A DNA stretch of 64,000 nucleotides from a phage, in the NCBI GenBank assembly GCA_024673055.1, contig GCA_024673055.1_4537.1, one strand, 5' to 3'. Position 1 is the first letter of the stretch. Each line of letters opens with the position of its first letter. A model generated the notes under the pieces. That model saw only the letters and a program-made list of their open reading frames with translations. It did not search any database and was not told where the DNA came from. Both the position numbers and the translations under genes were made by a program. Positions 21,728 to 32,990 of the stretch are shown here, one piece after another.

Positions 21728-22228
21728 ATGGGTGTAGCAACAATAGCTATCGGAAGAAGCGGTATAGATGAGTGCTATCAAACGGGACTCGTAAAACCTA
21801 ACGAATTTCGTCAAATTTGTGTAAACCATATTGAAAAAGAGATTGCTCTTACTTTAGAGAATATGACCCTCCGAGATAAACTGGAAATGTTTAAATGTTG
21901 GTGTCTAGGAGAAGATTGGCTTTTAAACCATTTTCAAGAACTTTCTGATAGTAAAGAAAGCTTGTTTGATTGTATAATAGGAATAGCTGGCTCCGATCCT
22001 AGCCTTCTGCACATAACAGAAGAAGAGGCGAAGTTACTGTTCTTAAGTAATTTGTTTAATAAGAAAGCACTGCTTGTTCGTGATTGCAGTGATCTTCTTA
22101 ATAACCCGCTCGCAACGTCTGATCAAATTTTTGTTGACAAAGAGACACTACGTGCGATAGAATACATCTGCAAATATGTGAATGGCGGGAAAGCGGTTCT
22201 TAAAACATTAACAGAGGAGGAAGAATAG
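21728..22228 (+). CDS. hypothetical protein
   Basis: AAGGAGGA SD then ATG 21728. Confidence 0.5.
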   Translation: MGVATIAIGRSGIDECYQTGLVKPNEFRQICVNHIEKEIALTLENMTLRDKLEMFKCWCLGEDWLLNHFQELSDSKESLFDCIIGIAGSDPSLLHITEEEAKLLFLSNLFNKKALLVRDCSDLLNNPLATSDQIFVDKETLRAIEYICKYVNGGKAVLKTLTEEEE

Positions 22229-22920
22229 TGACGACAATTATTGCAACCAAAAATAAGATTTTGAGTGACGGTAAGGTAACTTTTGGTGGACGTGTAGATT
22301 CTATTAATTTCAAAAAGGTCCGAAAAATTGGAGATTACCTTGTAGGTGGTGCTGGTCGTCTGACCTCCGTGCTTTCTTTCTTTCAATGGTTTGAACAAAA
22401 TCTACAGTGCGAAGCAGCACGTGATGCTGTCCCTGGTTTGATGATTCACTCTGATCCAGATAAAGAAGATGAAGAGTTTATTGCACTTGTTGTTCATCCA
22501 GACGGACGTATTTTCCTGCACGAAGGTAACAACCCAACACGTGCATATCCGATTGATGAAGAATATTATGCAGTAGGGAGTGGGTCAGATTTTGCTTTAG
22601 CTGCTCTTGATGCAGGGGCAACACCAGAACAGGCTATGGAAGTAGCTAAAAAGCGAGATGCTTTTTCTGGTGGTGAAACATTTATTGAAGAACAAGACGA
22701 GATTATTGAATTAACAGATGATGATTTAGAAAACTTCTCCAAAGAAGAATTGATCAATCTTTTGAAATTCGGTAATCCCTACGGTGAAGAAGAACCTCGT
22801 AACGTGGCAGGTAACGAGGCGGATACTGAAGAAAAATCTGTTGCAGAAAACAACTTGACTTCTAAATCTGAAAATATTAATCTCGTAAATGTGGCGGATT
22901 TCGAAGGAACCGCTATTTAA
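22228..22920 (+). CDS. HslV/proteasome-beta-like Ntn peptidase with acidic C-terminal extension
   Basis: N-terminal M-TTIIATK (Thr1 nucleophile after Met removal), GGAGRL, YYAVGSGSDFALAALDAG matches HslV GSGG/active-site region. Confidence 0.55.
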   Translation: MTTIIATKNKILSDGKVTFGGRVDSINFKKVRKIGDYLVGGAGRLTSVLSFFQWFEQNLQCEAARDAVPGLMIHSDPDKEDEEFIALVVHPDGRIFLHEGNNPTRAYPIDEEYYAVGSGSDFALAALDAGATPEQAMEVAKKRDAFSGGETFIEEQDEIIELTDDDLENFSKEELINLLKFGNPYGEEEPRNVAGNEADTEEKSVAENNLTSKSENINLVNVADFEGTAI

Positions 22921-22925
22921 CAAAC

Positions 22926-22945
22926 TGCCCCTTCGGGGGCATTTC
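22926..22945 (+). terminator. intrinsic terminator
   Basis: GCCCC-TTCG-GGGGC followed by ATTTCTT. Confidence 0.5.
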
Positions 22946-22965
22946 TTAAACATAGGAGATTAATA

Positions 22966-23400
22966 ATGTTACAAGTTCCTGCTAAGTTTGTTGAAGGCGC
23001 TATCCACTCTTACCGTCAAACATGTAAGAGGGCAAGAAACTGTTTAGATGGTCTGGTGGCAAAAACCTATACTGTTGAAAAGAAGAAACGTTGGTTTGGC
23101 AAAGATGTTTATGAAGTTAATATTTTTGGTGAACATAAACTAAACCATGACACTCCTGAAAACATGTTAGAAATATTTCTAAGAGATGACAAAATATCTC
23201 CTATGGATTACCAACTTTTAAAATTTTATGATTCTTCTTTGGCTATTGATAAGTTTGTTGAAGATATTCTGTCTAGAAAAACAGATAAAAACACTTATCC
23301 TCTAGAAGCTGATCAAATAGGATTATTAAACGAGATTTCATCCTTTAAAGAGTTGGATAATATTACAAAAGAGGAGATTTTAGATGGCATTAGATTATGA
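22966..23400 (+). CDS. hypothetical protein
   Basis: 144-aa ORF, AGGAGA SD. Confidence 0.5.
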   Translation: MLQVPAKFVEGAIHSYRQTCKRARNCLDGLVAKTYTVEKKKRWFGKDVYEVNIFGEHKLNHDTPENMLEIFLRDDKISPMDYQLLKFYDSSLAIDKFVEDILSRKTDKNTYPLEADQIGLLNEISSFKELDNITKEEILDGIRL

Positions 23401-23893
23401 TCGCCCAACGAGCGATTATTATCCGACACCGCAAAAAGCAATCAATAGTTTGTTTAGTGTTATAGATTTCAAAAATCTAAAGGAAGAAGGTTGGGTTTTT
23501 GCAGAACCTTGCAGAGGTGAAGCTGAAGCGATTTATCGCCATTTTCCTGAAGGTTCAGAATATTGCGAACTTGAAGAAGGTAAAGATTATTTTAGTCATG
23601 AATGGGAAAATCGTCCCGACATTATAATCACAAATCCTCCATTTAAGTTAGCAATGGAGTTCTTGGAAAAGAGCTTAAAAGAGGCGGATGTTTGTATTTA
23701 TCTTCTTCGGTTGGGTTTCTTGGAGTCAAAGAAACGACGAGAGTTCCATCAAAAGAATCCACCAACAAACCTTATAGTCCTTTCAGAACGGCCTTCGTTT
23801 GTTGCAGGTGGAACAGATAAGACAGCATACGCTTGGTATGTATACGACCCAAAGAATCGTTTGGGCCTCTCTCAACCATTTTATTTTGTTTAA
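23384..23893 (+). CDS. small amino-methyltransferase-like protein (phage Dam-like, NPPF motif)
   Basis: IIITNPPF (motif IV of N6A/N4C MTases) and FAEPCRGEAEA (SAM-binding-like); 169 aa. Confidence 0.5.
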   Translation: MALDYDRPTSDYYPTPQKAINSLFSVIDFKNLKEEGWVFAEPCRGEAEAIYRHFPEGSEYCELEEGKDYFSHEWENRPDIIITNPPFKLAMEFLEKSLKEADVCIYLLRLGFLESKKRREFHQKNPPTNLIVLSERPSFVAGGTDKTAYAWYVYDPKNRLGLSQPFYFV

Positions 23894-23905
23894 GGAGTGT
23901 GAACT

Positions 23906-24142
23906 ATGGGTAAACTAATTATGACAGTGGCTATTGATTTTGATGAAGTAGATGAAAGCCTCAACCTTTCACTTTCTACTGACGTAGATGGCGAAATGGA
24001 TAATATTGAAGCAGCTACTGCTCTTTTCTTCAAAAAAGCCATTGAAGTTTATGCCGAACATGCTGCAAATCAGGCAGTAGATTACGGTGGTATCGTGCGA
24101 GCTTTAGTTCACTCTACCGAGGGCAATGACTGGGAAGATTAA
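23906..24142 (+). CDS. hypothetical protein
   Basis: 78-aa ORF. Confidence 0.4.
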   Translation: MGKLIMTVAIDFDEVDESLNLSLSTDVDGEMDNIEAATALFFKKAIEVYAEHAANQAVDYGGIVRALVHSTEGNDWED

Positions 24143-24345
24143 TGGCTTACAATTATTACTGCATTTATGCACATGAAAAGAAAAAAGGTGACACTGGGAC
24201 TAACGTTTATGCAGAGTCCGAATCTCATGCAAAAGAGATTGGTGCTATCCTTTTATCACGCTGGACTGGAAATAATTACAGTGCAGAAGATATGTTTGCA
24301 GAAGTGGATTCTAGTATCCAAGAAGACAACATAACAACTACGTGA
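24142..24345 (+). CDS. hypothetical protein
   Basis: 67-aa ORF coupled to upstream stop. Confidence 0.4.
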   Translation: MAYNYYCIYAHEKKKGDTGTNVYAESESHAKEIGAILLSRWTGNNYSAEDMFAEVDSSIQEDNITTT

Positions 24346-24390
24346 TATACTTATACTCCCTTTTCGGAGGGAGTATTTTAAGGAGGGATT

Positions 24391-24585
24391 ATGCAGAGCG
24401 GAGAAGAACTTTTAGAGAAACAATTCTCAACGCGTCAACAAGCTTTAAGTTATATGGTTTTTCTAAGCAATCTTGATGTGAATGAGATACTTTTACGGCG
24501 CGAAGGTAATTTCTGGAGCGTTAAATATCATGCAACAAGGTCTGTAATCTACCTGGAAGAGGCGGAATTCTCTTTGGTAGAATGA
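24391..24585 (+). CDS. hypothetical protein
   Basis: AAGGAGGGA SD; preceded by stem-loop CTCCC-TTTTCG-GAGGGAG. Confidence 0.4.
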   Translation: MQSGEELLEKQFSTRQQALSYMVFLSNLDVNEILLRREGNFWSVKYHATRSVIYLEEAEFSLVE

Positions 24586-24599
24586 TCCGAGGAGTAGTT

Positions 24600-25172
24600 A
24601 TGCGTTCAACTTTCACTGGCAAAATAAATGCTGGTTTGATTTTTACAGCAGTAAGCATTCTTAGCAAAAAGTTTAAAGTTGTTAACTTACCTGTGTGTGT
24701 CGATTTCGATCATGTTTTTGATCCTTCGAACCCCACTCGTTGCATAGTAAGGAGCAATGTTGAAAACCCAACAGAAAATCTTTTTTATGTAACAAAACCA
24801 TCTCAAAGCATACTTAACCAGGTTGAGGCGAAATTGATACCTAACGGTAAATATTACTCCTTTTTACCTTGTAAGTCGGTTGAAGTAGAGAATAGCAGTA
24901 CTTTCGCTAACAACTTGTCTGTATTCGTTTTCTTTGTTTCACAGGAAGACGAAACAGATGAAATGGTAGCAACAGTGAGATCACTTTATGACTCTTTAGG
25001 GGTTGTTTATAGTCAACAAGTGTGCGAAAATAATAAAGCCTGTGTAGATTTCATTATCAACGGTATTTGTGTTTGTAGAGTAGAATCTTTTTGGCTGCAC
25101 GATACATATGTGACTGTAGCAGAGGTTATATCTGAACCAAGATTTAGTCATGCGGTTTCGTTAATAATTTGA
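24600..25172 (+). CDS. hypothetical protein
   Basis: GAGGAG SD then ATG 24600 (track start 24582 lacks SD). Confidence 0.5.
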   Translation: MRSTFTGKINAGLIFTAVSILSKKFKVVNLPVCVDFDHVFDPSNPTRCIVRSNVENPTENLFYVTKPSQSILNQVEAKLIPNGKYYSFLPCKSVEVENSSTFANNLSVFVFFVSQEDETDEMVATVRSLYDSLGVVYSQQVCENNKACVDFIINGICVCRVESFWLHDTYVTVAEVISEPRFSHAVSLII

Positions 25173-25182
25173 GGAGGAAGGA

Positions 25183-25512
25183 ATGGAAATTACTACAGAA
25201 CAAGCCCTTATCGACGAGGGTCGTAAAATCTTAGAAAAGTATTTAGGGGAGATTCATAAAACCCCTGGCTATTTGGGTTGGAGAATTGTTGAAGCTGTAG
25301 ATTTCCTTCCTCGTAACAGTAAAAACGTCGAAATGCGATCTCTTTTCTTATTAGTAAAGGTGGATGGGGATACACCTTTTAAAGATGCCGCAGAACATAT
25401 TGAAAAAGTTGAAGAGAAAGCTTATGCAGAATTTGCCGATCTTGTTTTAGAACAAGAGATTGAAGGAAAGGTGAATATTTTTATTTTCTTAGATTTTGAG
25501 GAGGATAAGTGA
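25183..25512 (+). CDS. hypothetical protein
   Basis: 109-aa ORF, GAGGAGGAAGG SD. Confidence 0.5.
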   Translation: MEITTEQALIDEGRKILEKYLGEIHKTPGYLGWRIVEAVDFLPRNSKNVEMRSLFLLVKVDGDTPFKDAAEHIEKVEEKAYAEFADLVLEQEIEGKVNIFIFLDFEEDK

Positions 25513-26252
25513 TCATACACAGAGAAATTACTGTTGAAAGCGATCAAGATCTTTTTATAATTGGAGATCTACACGGTTGTTATAATTTGTATGAAAAAGG
25601 AAAGGCAAAGTTAGGTATCCGAGATACAGATGTGGTTGTATCTCTAGGAGATCTTACTGACCGTGGAAAGCAAAACTTTCGTTGTGTTTTAGAATTTACT
25701 CGTAAACACAATCGCTACGCTATTCGTGGAAATCATGAAGACATGATGATTAAAGGTATGCTGGAAGGAGATCGTAGCTACTACGAGTGTTGGTATCAAA
25801 ATGGAGGATATACGGTCTTTGAAGAATGTGGTGAAGAAGGAGCTACAGCCTTAGCAATGATGACAGAAGATTTACCTGTTGTTCTCATTGTTAACTACAG
25901 AGGCATGAAACTTGCGTTTATTCATGGTGGGTATCCATCTTCTTTGGAATATCTCCCTGTAACAGATATTCCAGAATACATTTCGAAGATGACAAAAACA
26001 CAGGAAAACCGTTTTGCTGAAGCACTTATGTGGGACAGAGATATGGTAGACTGTGCTAAAGAGGGAATGAAACTTCCTGTTGTGATGGGTGTGGATTATG
26101 TGTTTCATGGACACTCTTATGTAAAAACACCTATTATCAATGCGAATCGTGTTTATATGGATACTGGATCTGTGTTCAATAATAACTTAACATTTGCTTA
26201 TTTCGATATGGACGGTGGTCTTCAATTTTATTCAACTCTTGAGGAGGATTAA
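25509..26252 (+). CDS. Ser/Thr protein phosphatase (lambda PPase-like metallophosphatase)
   Basis: GDLHG, GDLTDRG, RGNHE motifs in canonical order; GTG start after GAGGAGGA. Confidence 0.75.
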   Translation: MIIHREITVESDQDLFIIGDLHGCYNLYEKGKAKLGIRDTDVVVSLGDLTDRGKQNFRCVLEFTRKHNRYAIRGNHEDMMIKGMLEGDRSYYECWYQNGGYTVFEECGEEGATALAMMTEDLPVVLIVNYRGMKLAFIHGGYPSSLEYLPVTDIPEYISKMTKTQENRFAEALMWDRDMVDCAKEGMKLPVVMGVDYVFHGHSYVKTPIINANRVYMDTGSVFNNNLTFAYFDMDGGLQFYSTLEED

Positions 26253-26560
26253 TGTATAAGATTACAATTATTCAAAGTGTAGGTAATATCCGTAAAGAAG
26301 TTATCTTAGAAACAGAAGATGTTAATCTTGTTCGTGAGATTGTTCTTAAGGAAGATAACCTGCAAGCTGTAGAATCAGATGCACCGAATCTTATGGTGGA
26401 TCAAGAATATTCTGAACTTCGTCGTATTTTTGAAGAGATTCAGAAGAAAGAAACACAACCGACCATAAAACCTTTTGGTCCTTATGATCCGAGCAATCCT
26501 AGCAGTCCTTGGATCATGAGAAATACGGAACCGTATACACCTTTTGAAATTACTTGTTGA
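26252..26560 (+). CDS. hypothetical protein
   Basis: 102-aa ORF. Confidence 0.45.
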   Translation: MYKITIIQSVGNIRKEVILETEDVNLVREIVLKEDNLQAVESDAPNLMVDQEYSELRRIFEEIQKKETQPTIKPFGPYDPSNPSSPWIMRNTEPYTPFEITC

Positions 26561-26567
26561 GGTGATT

Positions 26568-27149
26568 ATGGCAGAACTGTTCTATACGGGAGTTGGAAGT
26601 AGAGACATATCCGAAGAAGAGTGGGCTTTGATGGTAGGCATAGGGAAATGGCTTTCAAACCTTGGGTTTAAATTAAGGTCTGGGAAGGCAGAGGGTAGTG
26701 ATTCTGCTTTTGAAACAGGTGTCCAAGAGTCTGAAAATCCTACTAACAAGGAGATTTATGTTCCTTGGGAAAATTTCAAAGGTAATCAGATTCCAGGGGA
26801 TGTTATTGTTCTTGCAAAACCAGATACAATGAACTATGCTATCTCTGTGCAATGGATCAAAGATGTTCACCCAGCCTATGAAAAGCTTAAGCAGGGTGCT
26901 AGAAAATTGCACCAACGTAATGTGCATCAAGTGTTAGGTAGAGATTTGGAAAATCCTGCTCCATCATGTTTCTTGTTGGCTTGTGCTAATACTGATAAAC
27001 ATGGAGATGCAAAAGGTGGAACAGCTACGGCTTGGAAGATAGCTAAAGCCAATAATGTTCCTTGTTTAAACATTCGTGGGAAAACAAAACAAGAGATTTA
27101 CGATTTTCTACGACCTTTGGTAATGAGGGCAATAACAAGTGATTCCTAA
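26568..27149 (+). CDS. SLOG/DprA-like Rossmann-fold protein
   Basis: GVGSRD and RSGKAEGSDSAFETG resemble DprA/SLOG SGxAxGxD nucleotide-binding motif; weak. Confidence 0.35.
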   Translation: MAELFYTGVGSRDISEEEWALMVGIGKWLSNLGFKLRSGKAEGSDSAFETGVQESENPTNKEIYVPWENFKGNQIPGDVIVLAKPDTMNYAISVQWIKDVHPAYEKLKQGARKLHQRNVHQVLGRDLENPAPSCFLLACANTDKHGDAKGGTATAWKIAKANNVPCLNIRGKTKQEIYDFLRPLVMRAITSDS

Positions 27150-28978: not shown

Positions 28979-29920
28979 ATGGTGTTAATTGGTAGCCGTG
29001 CATTGCAAATTCATGCTATGGACATGGGAAAAGACTTGTATCGCCCTTGTGTAGATTTAGATTACCTGTGTACAGAACAAGAGTGGGAAGAATTATTAAA
29101 AATGTTCTCTCAAGAGGAGTTTGTTGAACTTGTAGAACGTAAAGGAAACAAAGGCCATGTCAAAATGATAGCTGGTGCACATTTGGAATACGATATTGCT
29201 TCTCAAGGAGATAGCACAGAAGCTTTGATTAGTTATTGTGAAGATTCTGATGATGTTCGTCGAACTTACGCTGGACATGTTGTTGCTCCTTTAGATGTGC
29301 TCTACCTTCTTAAAATGAGTCATCGTTTTAAAAAGGATAGTCCTCACTTCTTTAAAACTATGAAAGATATTCATTTCATGCGGTCACTGGGCGCAAAGAT
29401 CCCAGAAAATCTTAAGAGTATTTATGAGTTGCGTGAGAAAGAAACATACACTTACTCTCATCCGAACTTAAACGTAAAAAGTAAAGACTTCTTTAAAGGT
29501 GATGAGGTTCCGTATGTTTATGATCATGATTCTATCCATGAAGCAATCTCGGTAATGGATGCTCCAGCATATAAATCTTATATGAAAGATGGAAGTGAAG
29601 TTATGACCAGCAAAGAAAAGTTTTTTGCTCAACCAAAACATGTGCGCCTGTTAGGTGTTTATGAAGAAGCGTGTGTTTTGGCTTTGGAACGTTCACAAAT
29701 CCCTTTCGGTGAAGAGATCGGAGGTCCAACCCCTAAGCAAAGTTTTATAATGGCTTTATCTAAAGTCTGCACATCCATCACTAGTGGTTGGTTTAGGGAA
29801 TATGCTTGGGAAAACTTTTATGTTGTTACTAAGCTATATGAAAACATGGGCGAAAACGATTATGTTGAACGTTTTAAAGCTAATCAACATGTAGTTAAGC
29901 CTTTTGAAGGAGGTTATTAA
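28979..29920 (+). CDS. hypothetical protein (possible minimal nucleotidyltransferase fold)
   Basis: 313-aa ORF; N-terminal LIGSRAL...DLD loosely resembles pol-beta-type NTase GS...DxD; weak. Confidence 0.45.
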   Translation: MVLIGSRALQIHAMDMGKDLYRPCVDLDYLCTEQEWEELLKMFSQEEFVELVERKGNKGHVKMIAGAHLEYDIASQGDSTEALISYCEDSDDVRRTYAGHVVAPLDVLYLLKMSHRFKKDSPHFFKTMKDIHFMRSLGAKIPENLKSIYELREKETYTYSHPNLNVKSKDFFKGDEVPYVYDHDSIHEAISVMDAPAYKSYMKDGSEVMTSKEKFFAQPKHVRLLGVYEEACVLALERSQIPFGEEIGGPTPKQSFIMALSKVCTSITSGWFREYAWENFYVVTKLYENMGENDYVERFKANQHVVKPFEGGY

Positions 29921-29921
29921 T

Positions 29922-30317
29922 ATGTGTGGATATCTTTCAGAAAGTTATTTCAAAGTGACCCATGAGGATTTAGAAAAAGCACGATTGAAACTGACAGCTA
30001 TTATTGAATACTCTAATACTGTTGATCACAGATTAAAGACTACTAAAGTATCTGTTCCTTGTTGGTTAGGTTTACGGCATAAAACAATGTCTCAGCATGA
30101 CCATGTTGTTCGAGAGATGCATGGTTGGTGTTGGTTTCACGATGTGGCTCTGCATTTTGGTTATATTACAGAAGAAGAGCATAGATTCTGTGAACTAACA
30201 TATCGTATTCCAACCCTTCACGATTTAGATTTGTGGAAGAAAGCAAACGAGATTTTTCTTACAGAAAGTGATTGGCGTAAAGTTATGGCTTGTCTTGAAT
30301 GGAGGGGTAATGAGTAA
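29922..30317 (+). CDS. hypothetical protein
   Basis: AAGGAGG then ATG 29922. Confidence 0.45.
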   Translation: MCGYLSESYFKVTHEDLEKARLKLTAIIEYSNTVDHRLKTTKVSVPCWLGLRHKTMSQHDHVVREMHGWCWFHDVALHFGYITEEEHRFCELTYRIPTLHDLDLWKKANEIFLTESDWRKVMACLEWRGNE

Positions 30318-30993
30318 AACAGTTTTGTCTATGTTTGACGGATCTGGGATCATGGTGTTACGTTATGCCGAAGCAGGTCACAAGTGTTTTTGTGTAAACG
30401 CTGATGAAGGGGATCACGGTAAATACGAGGTTAGGATGGAGCACCCAAACATAACCTATGTGAATGCCTGGATAGATTCTACATTCAACCCTGAAGATCA
30501 TGGGATACCTAAACCCGATATTATTTTTGGATTTCCACCCTGCACTATGTTAGCAGGTAGTGGTAGCAAACACGAACGTAGCACAGAGGAATTAGATGAA
30601 GCTTTAGCTAATATTCGTGTAGTGGAAGCTTTGGGTAACAAATATAATGTTCCTTGGATGATTGAGAACCCAGTAGGTAAACTTTCAACCTTATGGCGTA
30701 AACCCGATTTTTACTTTGATCCTTATGAGTATGGTGGGTATTTGTTTGAAGAGGAAGGAAGCTTTCATCCTAAAATGCCTACCCGTGATGGGTATACAAA
30801 GAAAACTTGTATTTGGCACGGCAATGGTTTTGTTCAACCAGTGAAGAAACCAGTAGATCATATAGGCTGCTTCTGGGGTTGGAAAAGCTTAGGTGGAGCT
30901 AGTGCAAAAACAAAACAACTTAGATCACTAACCGCACGTGGTTTTGCTCGTGCAGTGTTTTTGTCTAACAATCTTCTAGATAAGGAGAAATAA
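30310..30993 (+). CDS. cytosine-C5 methyltransferase-like protein (minimal, PCT variant)
   Basis: Start ATG 30310 after GGAGG; FDGSG (motif I-like), FGFPPCTMLAG (motif IV PC(Q)-like), IENPVGKL (motif VI ENV-like); no obvious target-recognition domain. Confidence 0.45.
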   Translation: MSKTVLSMFDGSGIMVLRYAEAGHKCFCVNADEGDHGKYEVRMEHPNITYVNAWIDSTFNPEDHGIPKPDIIFGFPPCTMLAGSGSKHERSTEELDEALANIRVVEALGNKYNVPWMIENPVGKLSTLWRKPDFYFDPYEYGGYLFEEEGSFHPKMPTRDGYTKKTCIWHGNGFVQPVKKPVDHIGCFWGWKSLGGASAKTKQLRSLTARGFARAVFLSNNLLDKEK

Positions 30994-31646
30994 TGTCAAA
31001 TTCAAAACCAGTGGTTGCTTATCAAGTAGATCGTAATGATGGTGAAGGAAGTGTTGTTATTTTCAGTACACACGGTCTTGAGGCTCGTCGAAAAGGTGCA
31101 TATCGTTTAGAATGTGAGTTTGAAGACTGCACAAGCCACCGTGTCAAACAATTCGATCAATATGCTGATAAAGGCTTCGTCCCTATCAAAGCGTTACTGG
31201 AAGATGGTTGGTGGGTATATTCTGCTTTTGATTACTCAAAACTGGAGGAGTCAGCTTCGTGCGCCTCCGAGATCGAATATGATGATTACTATGACACTCT
31301 ATACCTTCCAGAATGGCTTGTCTTTTCTCCTGATGAGAGAAGTGTCTGGAAAACGTGGGAAGAAATGGAGAGACATGCGTATAGCATCAATGAAGCTTTA
31401 GATCGTAAAGCTTGGTTTATTGAGGCAGTAAAGGCGGCATACCCCCAATTCTCATTCTGTGATTTCACTGGTGGCCCAGGATACATTACACATACAGCCT
31501 CTTTTGAGTTTCCTGGTTCACGTTATAAGGGTAATGTTTATTGGGACTGGGATGAAAATAAACAACCTTCGGCTCAAGACTTCCGTTGCTATGTTTGTCA
31601 AGGTGATCAAGAAGCCCTTGACAAATACCTTGAAAGTCTGGTATAG
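30993..31646 (+). CDS. hypothetical protein
   Basis: 217-aa ORF, AAGGAGAAATA SD. Confidence 0.5.
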   Translation: MSNSKPVVAYQVDRNDGEGSVVIFSTHGLEARRKGAYRLECEFEDCTSHRVKQFDQYADKGFVPIKALLEDGWWVYSAFDYSKLEESASCASEIEYDDYYDTLYLPEWLVFSPDERSVWKTWEEMERHAYSINEALDRKAWFIEAVKAAYPQFSFCDFTGGPGYITHTASFEFPGSRYKGNVYWDWDENKQPSAQDFRCYVCQGDQEALDKYLESLV

Positions 31647-31704: not shown

Positions 31705-32190
31705 ATGTTTCAAGTAAATGTCAATGTGCATAATAGTTACTCTGATTGTGAAACGTGTGGCTATAATTCATCTAATGTTATTCGTATTAGTGGCGATTTA
31801 GGAGAAGCTTCTTTTGGAGAAGAAGCAAGTTGCTTTAGTGGTATGGATGCAGAATGGAATGATATTGCACATTGGTTAGTGAGCAAACTAAAAGAAAAAG
31901 AGAAACCATTTCCTACTCTGCTTGATCGTTCTCTTGTGGAAGATGCAGGTAAAGCATATGCAGACTATGCGTATGCAGACGGGAAATATTTGGAAGATGA
32001 TAAGGCTAACCATTTGCTTTATGTTTACTATGAAGCTGAATCTGCCTACGATAATTATTACAGCATGTCTAACATCCTACGTCTGTTTGCAGAGTTTGAT
32101 ATTTATTTCGAAGTAGAATTTTCAGAAGATGATACTTACGAGTACAATTCTTATGATCCATTTGAGGAGGAAGAATGCCAAGACGAGTGA
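31705..32190 (+). CDS. hypothetical acidic protein
   Basis: 161-aa ORF, AGGAGGGAATATG. Confidence 0.5.
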   Translation: MFQVNVNVHNSYSDCETCGYNSSNVIRISGDLGEASFGEEASCFSGMDAEWNDIAHWLVSKLKEKEKPFPTLLDRSLVEDAGKAYADYAYADGKYLEDDKANHLLYVYYEAESAYDNYYSMSNILRLFAEFDIYFEVEFSEDDTYEYNSYDPFEEEECQDE

Positions 32191-32990
32191 TTTTTGTAAG
32201 TGGTGCAGGTTTAAGTGCAGACAGTGGGATTCGAACATTTAGAACAGACACAGATAGTGGTCGTGCTTTATGGGAAGAATATGATTTAGAAGAGGTCTGC
32301 GATATTGGAGCTTTCCAAGCAGGTTATCGTGTTAGAACATCTCCAGATCTTCCAGTGGTCGGTGGTGTAGACGAGAACGGTATGGATTTGTATGCCAAAA
32401 CACACGAATTTTATAACAAAAGACGTGTTGAGCTTAAAGATGTACAACCTAATGCTGCACATATTCAAATAGCAAAGTGGTTTAAGGAATATCCTAACCA
32501 AATAGTAAACTTGACAACAAACGTTGATGATCTACTAGAGCGAGCAGGTGTAGACAGAGATTCTGTTATTCACGTACACGGATATCTTCCTGAAGTAGTT
32601 TACCGTATGCATCCTGGAGATTACAAAACACTGGTAGATATTGGTTACAATAGTATAAACATAGATGATTATAACTGGGTGAAGCCTAATGTTGTATTTT
32701 TTGGTGAGGCTGCACCTTTGTATGCAGATATGGCTCACTTGTTCGATACTTTGACCATGCAAGATTTGGTTGTAGTAGTAGGATGTTCAAACCAAGTTAT
32801 CAATTTTAATTGGGAATTATTTCCTGCACTTAGTATGGGTACAAAAATGGTTGTAGTTAACCCTGGAGTTAATTACGAAGAAACACTTCTCTATGAAGAT
32901 CGTGGAGTTTTTGTTTACCGAGAAAAAGCTGCAACAGCCTTCAGCAATGAAGGTTTCATTAAAATGGTCGAAGACCACTTAAACAAATAA
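32175..32990 (+). CDS. SIR2-family (sirtuin-like) NAD-binding protein lacking zinc module
   Basis: FVSGAGLSADSGIRTFR matches sirtuin GAGxSxxSGIPxFR; NVDDLLERAG and HVHG motifs present; no CxxC zinc ribbon. Confidence 0.65.
   Translation: MPRRVIFVSGAGLSADSGIRTFRTDTDSGRALWEEYDLEEVCDIGAFQAGYRVRTSPDLPVVGGVDENGMDLYAKTHEFYNKRRVELKDVQPNAAHIQIAKWFKEYPNQIVNLTTNVDDLLERAGVDRDSVIHVHGYLPEVVYRMHPGDYKTLVDIGYNSINIDDYNWVKPNVVFFGEAAPLYADMAHLFDTLTMQDLVVVVGCSNQVINFNWELFPALSMGTKMVVVNPGVNYEETLLYEDRGVFVYREKAATAFSNEGFIKMVEDHLNK

Follow-up and report, generated by a model that had tools for sequence, protein, structure and literature searches.

On the plus strand of the window (the whole stretch of 64,000 nucleotides of phage DNA that was analysed), a complete gene at positions 30310..30993 very probably encodes a stand-alone, SAM-dependent orphan DNA cytosine-C5 methyltransferase of a compact "Dcm-like" phage family. 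The initial annotation had offered, as one of its options, a compact DNA C5-modifying enzyme, and this option is supported by the phrog_757 family profile, the conservation of the catalytic residues, the predicted fold and a 50%-identical homolog that makes 5-methylcytosine (5mC). The novelty it implied did not survive comparison: records of near-identical phages already name this gene as a DNA methyltransferase, and the PCT sequence at its predicted catalytic cysteine is the norm of its family. It is a known gene and a typical representative of the unusually small phage C5-methyltransferases, which form a very common family. For the window itself it is of little importance, as this orphan methyltransferase is a routine, previously annotated gene in phAPEC8-like phages. 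The family is of somewhat wider interest: it is extremely abundant in enterobacterial phages, escapes both Pfam and NCBIfam, and includes one member that triggers a retron defence.

The gene and its family

The open reading frame 30310..30993 (+), read directly from the sequence, consists of 227 codons plus a stop codon. The longest mechanical open reading frame opens at an upstream GTG (30268), but the ATG at 30310 is preferred as the start, because homologs begin at the same "MSK(V/T)V" position. A Shine-Dalgarno-like GGAGGGG (30301..30307, plus strand) can be read just 5' of this ATG. The upstream frame (29922..30317, plus strand, phrog_16551) overlaps the methyltransferase gene by 8 nucleotides, and the downstream frame (30993..31646, plus strand, phrog_8514) shares a TAATG stop/start with it. 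These junctions place the gene within a tightly packed plus-strand operon, in which it is translationally coupled to both flanking frames.

The protein matches the phrog_757 profile ("DNA methyltransferase") over its full length (residues 1–225, E = 1.8e-84). The 4-kb surroundings of the gene in the window share 99.5% identity with Escherichia phage Mt1B1_P17 and more than 99% with many phAPEC8-like phages; the window is from a phAPEC8-like phage of the genus Phapecoctavirus (Stephanstirmvirinae). The Mt1B1_P17 counterpart, JR327_gp216 (684 bp), is annotated "DNA methyltransferase" in RefSeq, while other near-identical phage records carry "DNA methylase" or "putative site-specific DNA methylase". 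Phages BI-EHEC and vB_EcoM_DE16 encode 100% identical proteins, and 65 phage records contain the protein at 99–100% identity.

More distant relatives are abundant. Of 50,697 phage records searched with tblastn, 1,488 contain a homolog, among them Drexlerviridae (labelled "Dcm-like C5 cytosine methyltransferase" in the BASEL collection), many Klebsiella phages, FFH2 and kaaroe ("Dcm"). In a word-indexed search there were 870 matches, typically of 215–245 residues and with no precomputed Pfam domain; where a source name is given, it is "DNA cytosine methyltransferase", "DNA methyltransferase", "putative DNA methylase" or "hypothetical protein". An exhaustive HMMER scan of 1.84 billion cluster representatives yielded 965 clusters (at 50% identity) with E<=1e-3, and the median length among the 150 best-scoring representatives was 226 residues. 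This family-wide short length indicates that compactness is a fixed property of a large family and not a truncation. When ten longer family members were scanned, one (P0238, 348 residues) contained a carboxy-terminal HNH_2 domain and the rest nothing recognisable. Homologs 62% and 48% identical to the coliphage protein occur in records labelled as the Campylobacter jejuni phages A13a (MG065679) and A12a (MG065666), respectively, and five "Campylobacter" records match the 4-kb query region in megablast; the Campylobacter host labels of such records look doubtful.

Motifs and predicted fold

The three motifs on which the initial annotation relied, FDGSG, FPPCT and ENP, are all present and in the order expected for C5-methyltransferases, far beyond chance. 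Conservation was counted over 125 diverse family members with about 35–60% mutual identity. Motif I, FDGSG (residues 9–13, 30334..30348, plus strand), is the predicted SAM-binding loop after strand beta1 and aligns with FSGAG of M.HaeIII; within the close clade, D10, G11, S12 and G13 do not vary, and Gly11 sets this clade apart from the (F/C/Y)D-x-(T/S)-G variant of the wider family. Position 30, taken to be the site of the acidic motif II ligand of the SAM ribose, is Asp in 119 of the 125 relatives and Asn in this protein; all 29 of its closest relatives likewise have Asn30. Asp56 (motif III-like), W169 and P177 are near-invariant as well.

Motif IV, FPPCT (residues 75–79, 30532..30546, plus strand), aligns with GPPCQ of M.HaeIII and contains the predicted catalytic nucleophile Cys78 (codon TGC, 30541–30543), present in 123 of 125 members. 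The replacement of PCQ by PCT pointed out in the initial annotation is real, but it is not unusual: the residue after the cysteine is Thr in 109 of 125 members, Asp in 9 and Gln in 3. Among active C5-methyltransferases this residue varies, and in the DNMT3 enzymes the motif is PCN. In motif VI, ENP (residues 119–121, 30664..30672, plus strand), conservation singles out Glu119 (125/125) as the predicted N3-protonating glutamate, followed by Asn120 (120/125) and Pro121 (124/125); the motif closes a strand formed by residues 116–121 in the AlphaFold2 model.

The 227-residue protein has neither QxRxR, the canonical form of motif VIII, nor a motif X that can be recognised as GN(A/S)V. Judged by position and secondary structure in the model, the putative counterpart of QxRxR is the motif VIII-like sequence YTKKT (residues 162–166, 30793..30807, plus strand), in which Y162 (124/125), K164 (124/125) and T166 (122/125) are conserved and which leads into a strand of residues 166–171. 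At the carboxy-terminal end, a block with the sequence RSLTARGFARAVFLSN (residues 205–220, 30922..30969, plus strand) resembles motif IX (R-x-L-T-P-R-E-x-A-R) in its first part (R205-S-L-T-A-R-G-F-A-R-A-V216) and ends in a conserved asparagine. From its sequence pattern, RSLTARGFARAVFLSN would be motif IX, and its final Asn220 may stand for the motif X asparagine. In this block R205 is conserved in 120 of 125 members, S206 in 114, P209 in 116 (Ala in this protein), G211 in 120, A215 in 116 and N220 in 94, so that, with C78, E119, N120, P121, Y162, K164 and T166, also R205 and G211 count as invariant or nearly so.

The motif VIII-like strand is separated from the motif IX-like block by only some 35–40 residues, which bears out the initial observation that there is no evident target-recognition domain (TRD). 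In enzymes of the M.HhaI type, about 100 residues separate motifs VIII and IX. In the model, the vestigial target-recognition region (residues ~172–204, 30823..30921, plus strand) is a loop with two short helices, in which F174, P177 and the G195/G196 region are conserved among the 125 members. It is because this region is so small that the protein totals 227 residues, against roughly 290–470 in canonical C5-methyltransferases, and the family is among the smallest natural enzymes of this kind. Compared to M.HhaI, M.HaeIII and E. coli Dcm, the phage protein is about 100 or more residues shorter; it lacks the large TRD, the canonical QxRxR and GN(A/S)V, and has a PF00145 score below threshold.

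Similarity to canonical enzymes is weak at the sequence level. The score with Pfam PF00145 is 11.6 bits (E = 0.18), where 22 bits are required, and the match covers only residues 4–92 (motifs I–IV); just 2 of 79 family members reach E<0.01 with this profile; a search of NCBIfam with the protein gave no match. Searches of PDB sequences with the single sequence and with a 79-sequence profile found M.HaeIII and DNMT2 at E~0.07–0.08, again in motifs I–IV alone. As these weak matches are confined to motifs I–IV, sequence methods alone cannot place the carboxy-terminal half. Orthology to E. coli Dcm was considered and rejected: BLASTP gives E = 0.29, and hhalign of the family profile against Dcm a probability of 1.1%, over motifs IV–VI only. 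Neither comparison being significant, "Dcm-like" refers to function and does not denote orthology to the E. coli enzyme.

The fold could be assigned from structure prediction, which had been proposed as a check. An AlphaFold2 model calculated from a 29-sequence alignment (mean pLDDT 85.3, pTM 0.86) has an alternating layout of strands and helices that fits a Rossmann-like core; the predicted fold is the class I methyltransferase fold with C5-methyltransferase topology. The loop of residues 80–88, right after PCT, has a pLDDT below 50, and such low values are expected for a mobile catalytic loop. Foldseek agrees with the C5-methyltransferase fold, with DNMT3A and DNMT3B (PDB entries 6u8p and 4u7t) as the best structural neighbours, at 18–19% identity over the structural alignment. 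The DNMT3 enzymes differ in forming DNMT3L-containing tetramers with regulatory domains and in reading CpG with a TRD loop, while the TRD of DNMT3A and DNMT3B is reduced in a similar way to that of the compact phage enzyme. Among the viral models of BFVD, family members annotated as DNA-cytosine methylases come first, followed by canonical viral C5-methyltransferases. A structurally similar compact methyltransferase domain is also present in two large proteins of uncultured phages, in the first modelled segment of the very large A0A6J5SE15 (1397 residues) and in the second of A0A6J5NPY6 (1126 residues); one of the two is annotated as helicase/UvrB N-terminal.

An active homolog, the proposed mechanism and alternatives

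The 711-bp dcm gene of phage K42, which is 95.4% identical to KarlJaspers (Bas06), is the trigger of retron Ec86 (Ec86/Eco1): four escape phages carried mutations within or just upstream of dcm, and K42 Dcm expressed by itself proved toxic only to cells that had the retron (bioRxiv preprint 10.1101/2023.08.16.553469). In LC-MS measurements of the same study, wild-type K42 Dcm, expressed alone, led to high 5mC on the msDNA, which was low with the quadruple mutant C82A/E128A/K175A/K176A and with empty vector; its authors predicted K175 and K176 to be substrate-binding residues (10.1101/2023.08.16.553469). Later papers accept the K42 Dcm result, citing the title "DNA methylation activates retron Ec86 filaments".

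The KarlJaspers gene bas06_0055 (711 bp, 236 residues, annotated "Dcm-like C5 cytosine methyltransferase") matches the description of K42 Dcm, with C82 in FPPCT, E128 in IENP and K175/K176 in FKKT. BLASTP aligns it with the window protein over the full length at 50% identity (E = 1e-71), and in this alignment C82, E128, K175 and K176 correspond to C78, E119, K164 and K165 of the window protein. The K42/KarlJaspers and window proteins have in common FDGSG, the motif II asparagine, FPPCT, IENPVG, (F/T)KKT and RSLTxRGFARAV. They come from different lineages, KarlJaspers being a siphovirus of the Drexlerviridae and the window phage a myovirus of the Stephanstirmvirinae, and small insertions or deletions set them apart in the loops that follow motif IV and within the vestigial TRD (residues ~176–195). 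The latter region is most likely the one that sets sequence preference, so the target site could differ from that of K42 Dcm. As the K42-type homolog is active, an enzyme with the PCT sequence, the motif II asparagine and no TRD can form 5mC, and the window protein probably has the same activity.

By analogy with enzymes of the M.HhaI and DNMT3 type, a mechanism can be drawn. The Rossmann-like core would bind SAM through the FDGSG of motif I and Asp56 of motif III, and the target cytosine would be flipped out of the duplex DNA. Cys78 of FPPCT would then attack C6, with Glu119 of ENP protonating N3, after which the methyl group would pass to C5 and beta-elimination would free the 5-methylcytosine. 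Lys164 and Lys165 may stand in for the motif VIII arginines; judged by position and secondary structure, K164 and T166 would map onto these arginines. DNA would be recognised through the catalytic loop and the vestigial segment of about 35 residues instead of a full target-recognition domain. In the infected cell, the enzyme would likely methylate the replicating phage DNA, and incidentally host DNA, thereby blunting host restriction, and the same methylation could be sensed by retron Ec86/Eco1.

Alternatives differ in the group transferred, in the substrate or in whether the enzyme works at all. A pyrimidine-hypermodification enzyme had been suggested initially, and the protein might transfer a group other than methyl, for instance carboxymethyl from Cx-SAM as CmoX does, or start a DNA hypermodification pathway. 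This we consider very improbable: the homolog makes 5mC, and no gene of the TET/JBP, CmoA/CmoY or glycosyltransferase type occurs among the frames scanned over about 6 kb upstream and 2 kb downstream, or in the RefSeq annotation of 7 kb to either side. CmoX (PDB entry 8yf3) has 333 residues, Arg350 at the position of the motif X asparagine, an SPPC motif and linkage to cmoA/cmoY (PMC12783734). The window protein, with FPPC and the conserved Asn220, has none of these determinants, and assignment as a carboxymethyltransferase was rejected on this basis (PMC12783734). A tRNA or rRNA cytosine-C5 methyltransferase, whether Dnmt2-like or Trm4/RlmI-like, is hardly more credible; the RNA substrate entertained in the initial annotation finds no support in the ranking of folds, in motif VI or in the substrate of the homolog, and the protein has neither the motif VI "TC" with a second catalytic cysteine nor an RsmB/NSUN-type fold match, the two features looked for as signs of an RNA m5C methyltransferase (NSUN/RsmB/Trm4/RlmI).

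Finally, this particular copy might be catalytically impaired and serve as a DNA-binding decoy or regulator, given that it departs from the family majority at three positions, Asn30 (Asp in 119/125), Thr92 (Lys in 117/125) and Ala209 (Pro in 116/125). However, Asn30 is found in 29 of 29 sequences of the close clade and in the K42-type enzyme bas06_0055, all catalytic residues are intact, and the near-identity of the protein in 65 phage records argues for purifying selection on a working enzyme, which makes such an impairment very improbable. A functional DNA cytosine-C5 methyltransferase remains the preferred reading.

Target specificity and genomic surroundings

In the K42 study, CCWGG was taken over as target from the host Dcm and is backed only by mutation of the motif in the msDNA; the assays were done in MG1655, in which control msDNA had low 5mC without the phage enzyme (10.1101/2023.08.16.553469). 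The MG1655 genome carries dcm, and low control 5mC in such a strain sits uneasily with an identical CCWGG specificity of the phage enzyme. In the window there is no depletion of CCWGG (95 sites, with 80 expected) or of GATC (332, with 311 expected), whereas CCGG (32 against 79.5, ratio 0.40) and GGCC (30 against 84.8, ratio 0.35) are strongly depleted; CCSGG occurs 0 times where 10.7 are expected. This suggests that some GC palindromes of 4 bp are selectively avoided, while Dcm and Dam sites are not. The counts are compatible with CCWGG sites being protected and CCGG and GGCC sites unprotected, the non-depletion of CCWGG being in itself uninformative on specificity.

It is possible, though we hold this only tentatively, that the compact family does not have CCWGG specificity at all and instead has a short, relaxed or structure-dependent preference, for example for hairpins or transiently single-stranded DNA. 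Such a preference would explain why Ec86 is methylated and activated by the phage enzyme and not by a dcm+ host, why overexpression has been described as probably toxic, and why methyltransferase genes do not track restriction resistance among the BASEL Drexlerviridae, for which no simple link between the two was reported. If true, a very abundant family outside Pfam and NCBIfam, without a solved structure, would represent a minimal natural C5-methyltransferase with a new way of reading DNA. In the methylome literature on Phapecoctavirus or Drexlerviridae we found no base-resolution 5mC maps, and in the literature on the compact family no mapping of its target sequence or of DNA recognition without a TRD. 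Knowing the target sequence and mode of recognition would help to foresee how sensitive a phage is to restriction, to type IV enzymes that depend on 5mC (McrBC type) and to retron Ec86.

The genes flanking the methyltransferase are of unknown function (phrog_2141/DUF7275, phrog_16551, phrog_8514 and phrog_9509). A domain scan identified a DUF7277+DUF7275 protein two genes upstream (28979..29920, plus strand), and a Sir2-family (NAD-dependent deacetylase-like) gene is located two genes downstream (32175..32990, plus strand; phrog_2162, E = 2.8e-104). Among the open reading frames at about 24.6–27.6 and 29.0–33.0 kb, and in the RefSeq annotation of 7 kb to either side, there is no TET/JBP, glycosyltransferase, CmoA/CmoY, thymidylate-synthase-like or restriction gene. 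The phrog_8514 frame was considered as a trans-acting specificity subunit and rejected, since it is not found beside family members elsewhere and K42 Dcm works when expressed alone.

Neighbours of the family members in KarlJaspers, PaulSarasin, a Serratia prophage and a Bdellovibrio prophage show no homology to the phrog_8514 frame or across lineages, and neither this frame nor phrog_16551 is kept beside family members in other lineages. The Serratia copy adjoins a lambda-type early/replication module (S24 repressor, DnaB, RusA), and that of Bdellovibrio is part of a phage-like cluster (primase-polymerase-like protein, MazG, RNase H, DNA ligase); a search for restriction-enzyme domains beside the two copies detected none. 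Unconserved neighbours and the missing restriction partner are the signature of a mobile orphan methyltransferase.

Upstream in the window, a second methyltransferase-like frame (23384..23893, plus strand, 169 residues) contains the amino-methyltransferase motif "IITNPPF". It matches phrog_799 ("DNA methyltransferase", E = 2.8e-59) over profile positions 206–373 of 458 only, has no Pfam match, is annotated "DNA methyltransferase" in RefSeq and may be a truncated or minimal N6-adenine/N4-cytosine methyltransferase. The block 22228..27149 (plus strand) also contains an HslV-family peptidase, a 196-residue frame annotated "histidyl tRNA synthetase", a NinI-like Ser/Thr phosphatase and a DprA-like protein.
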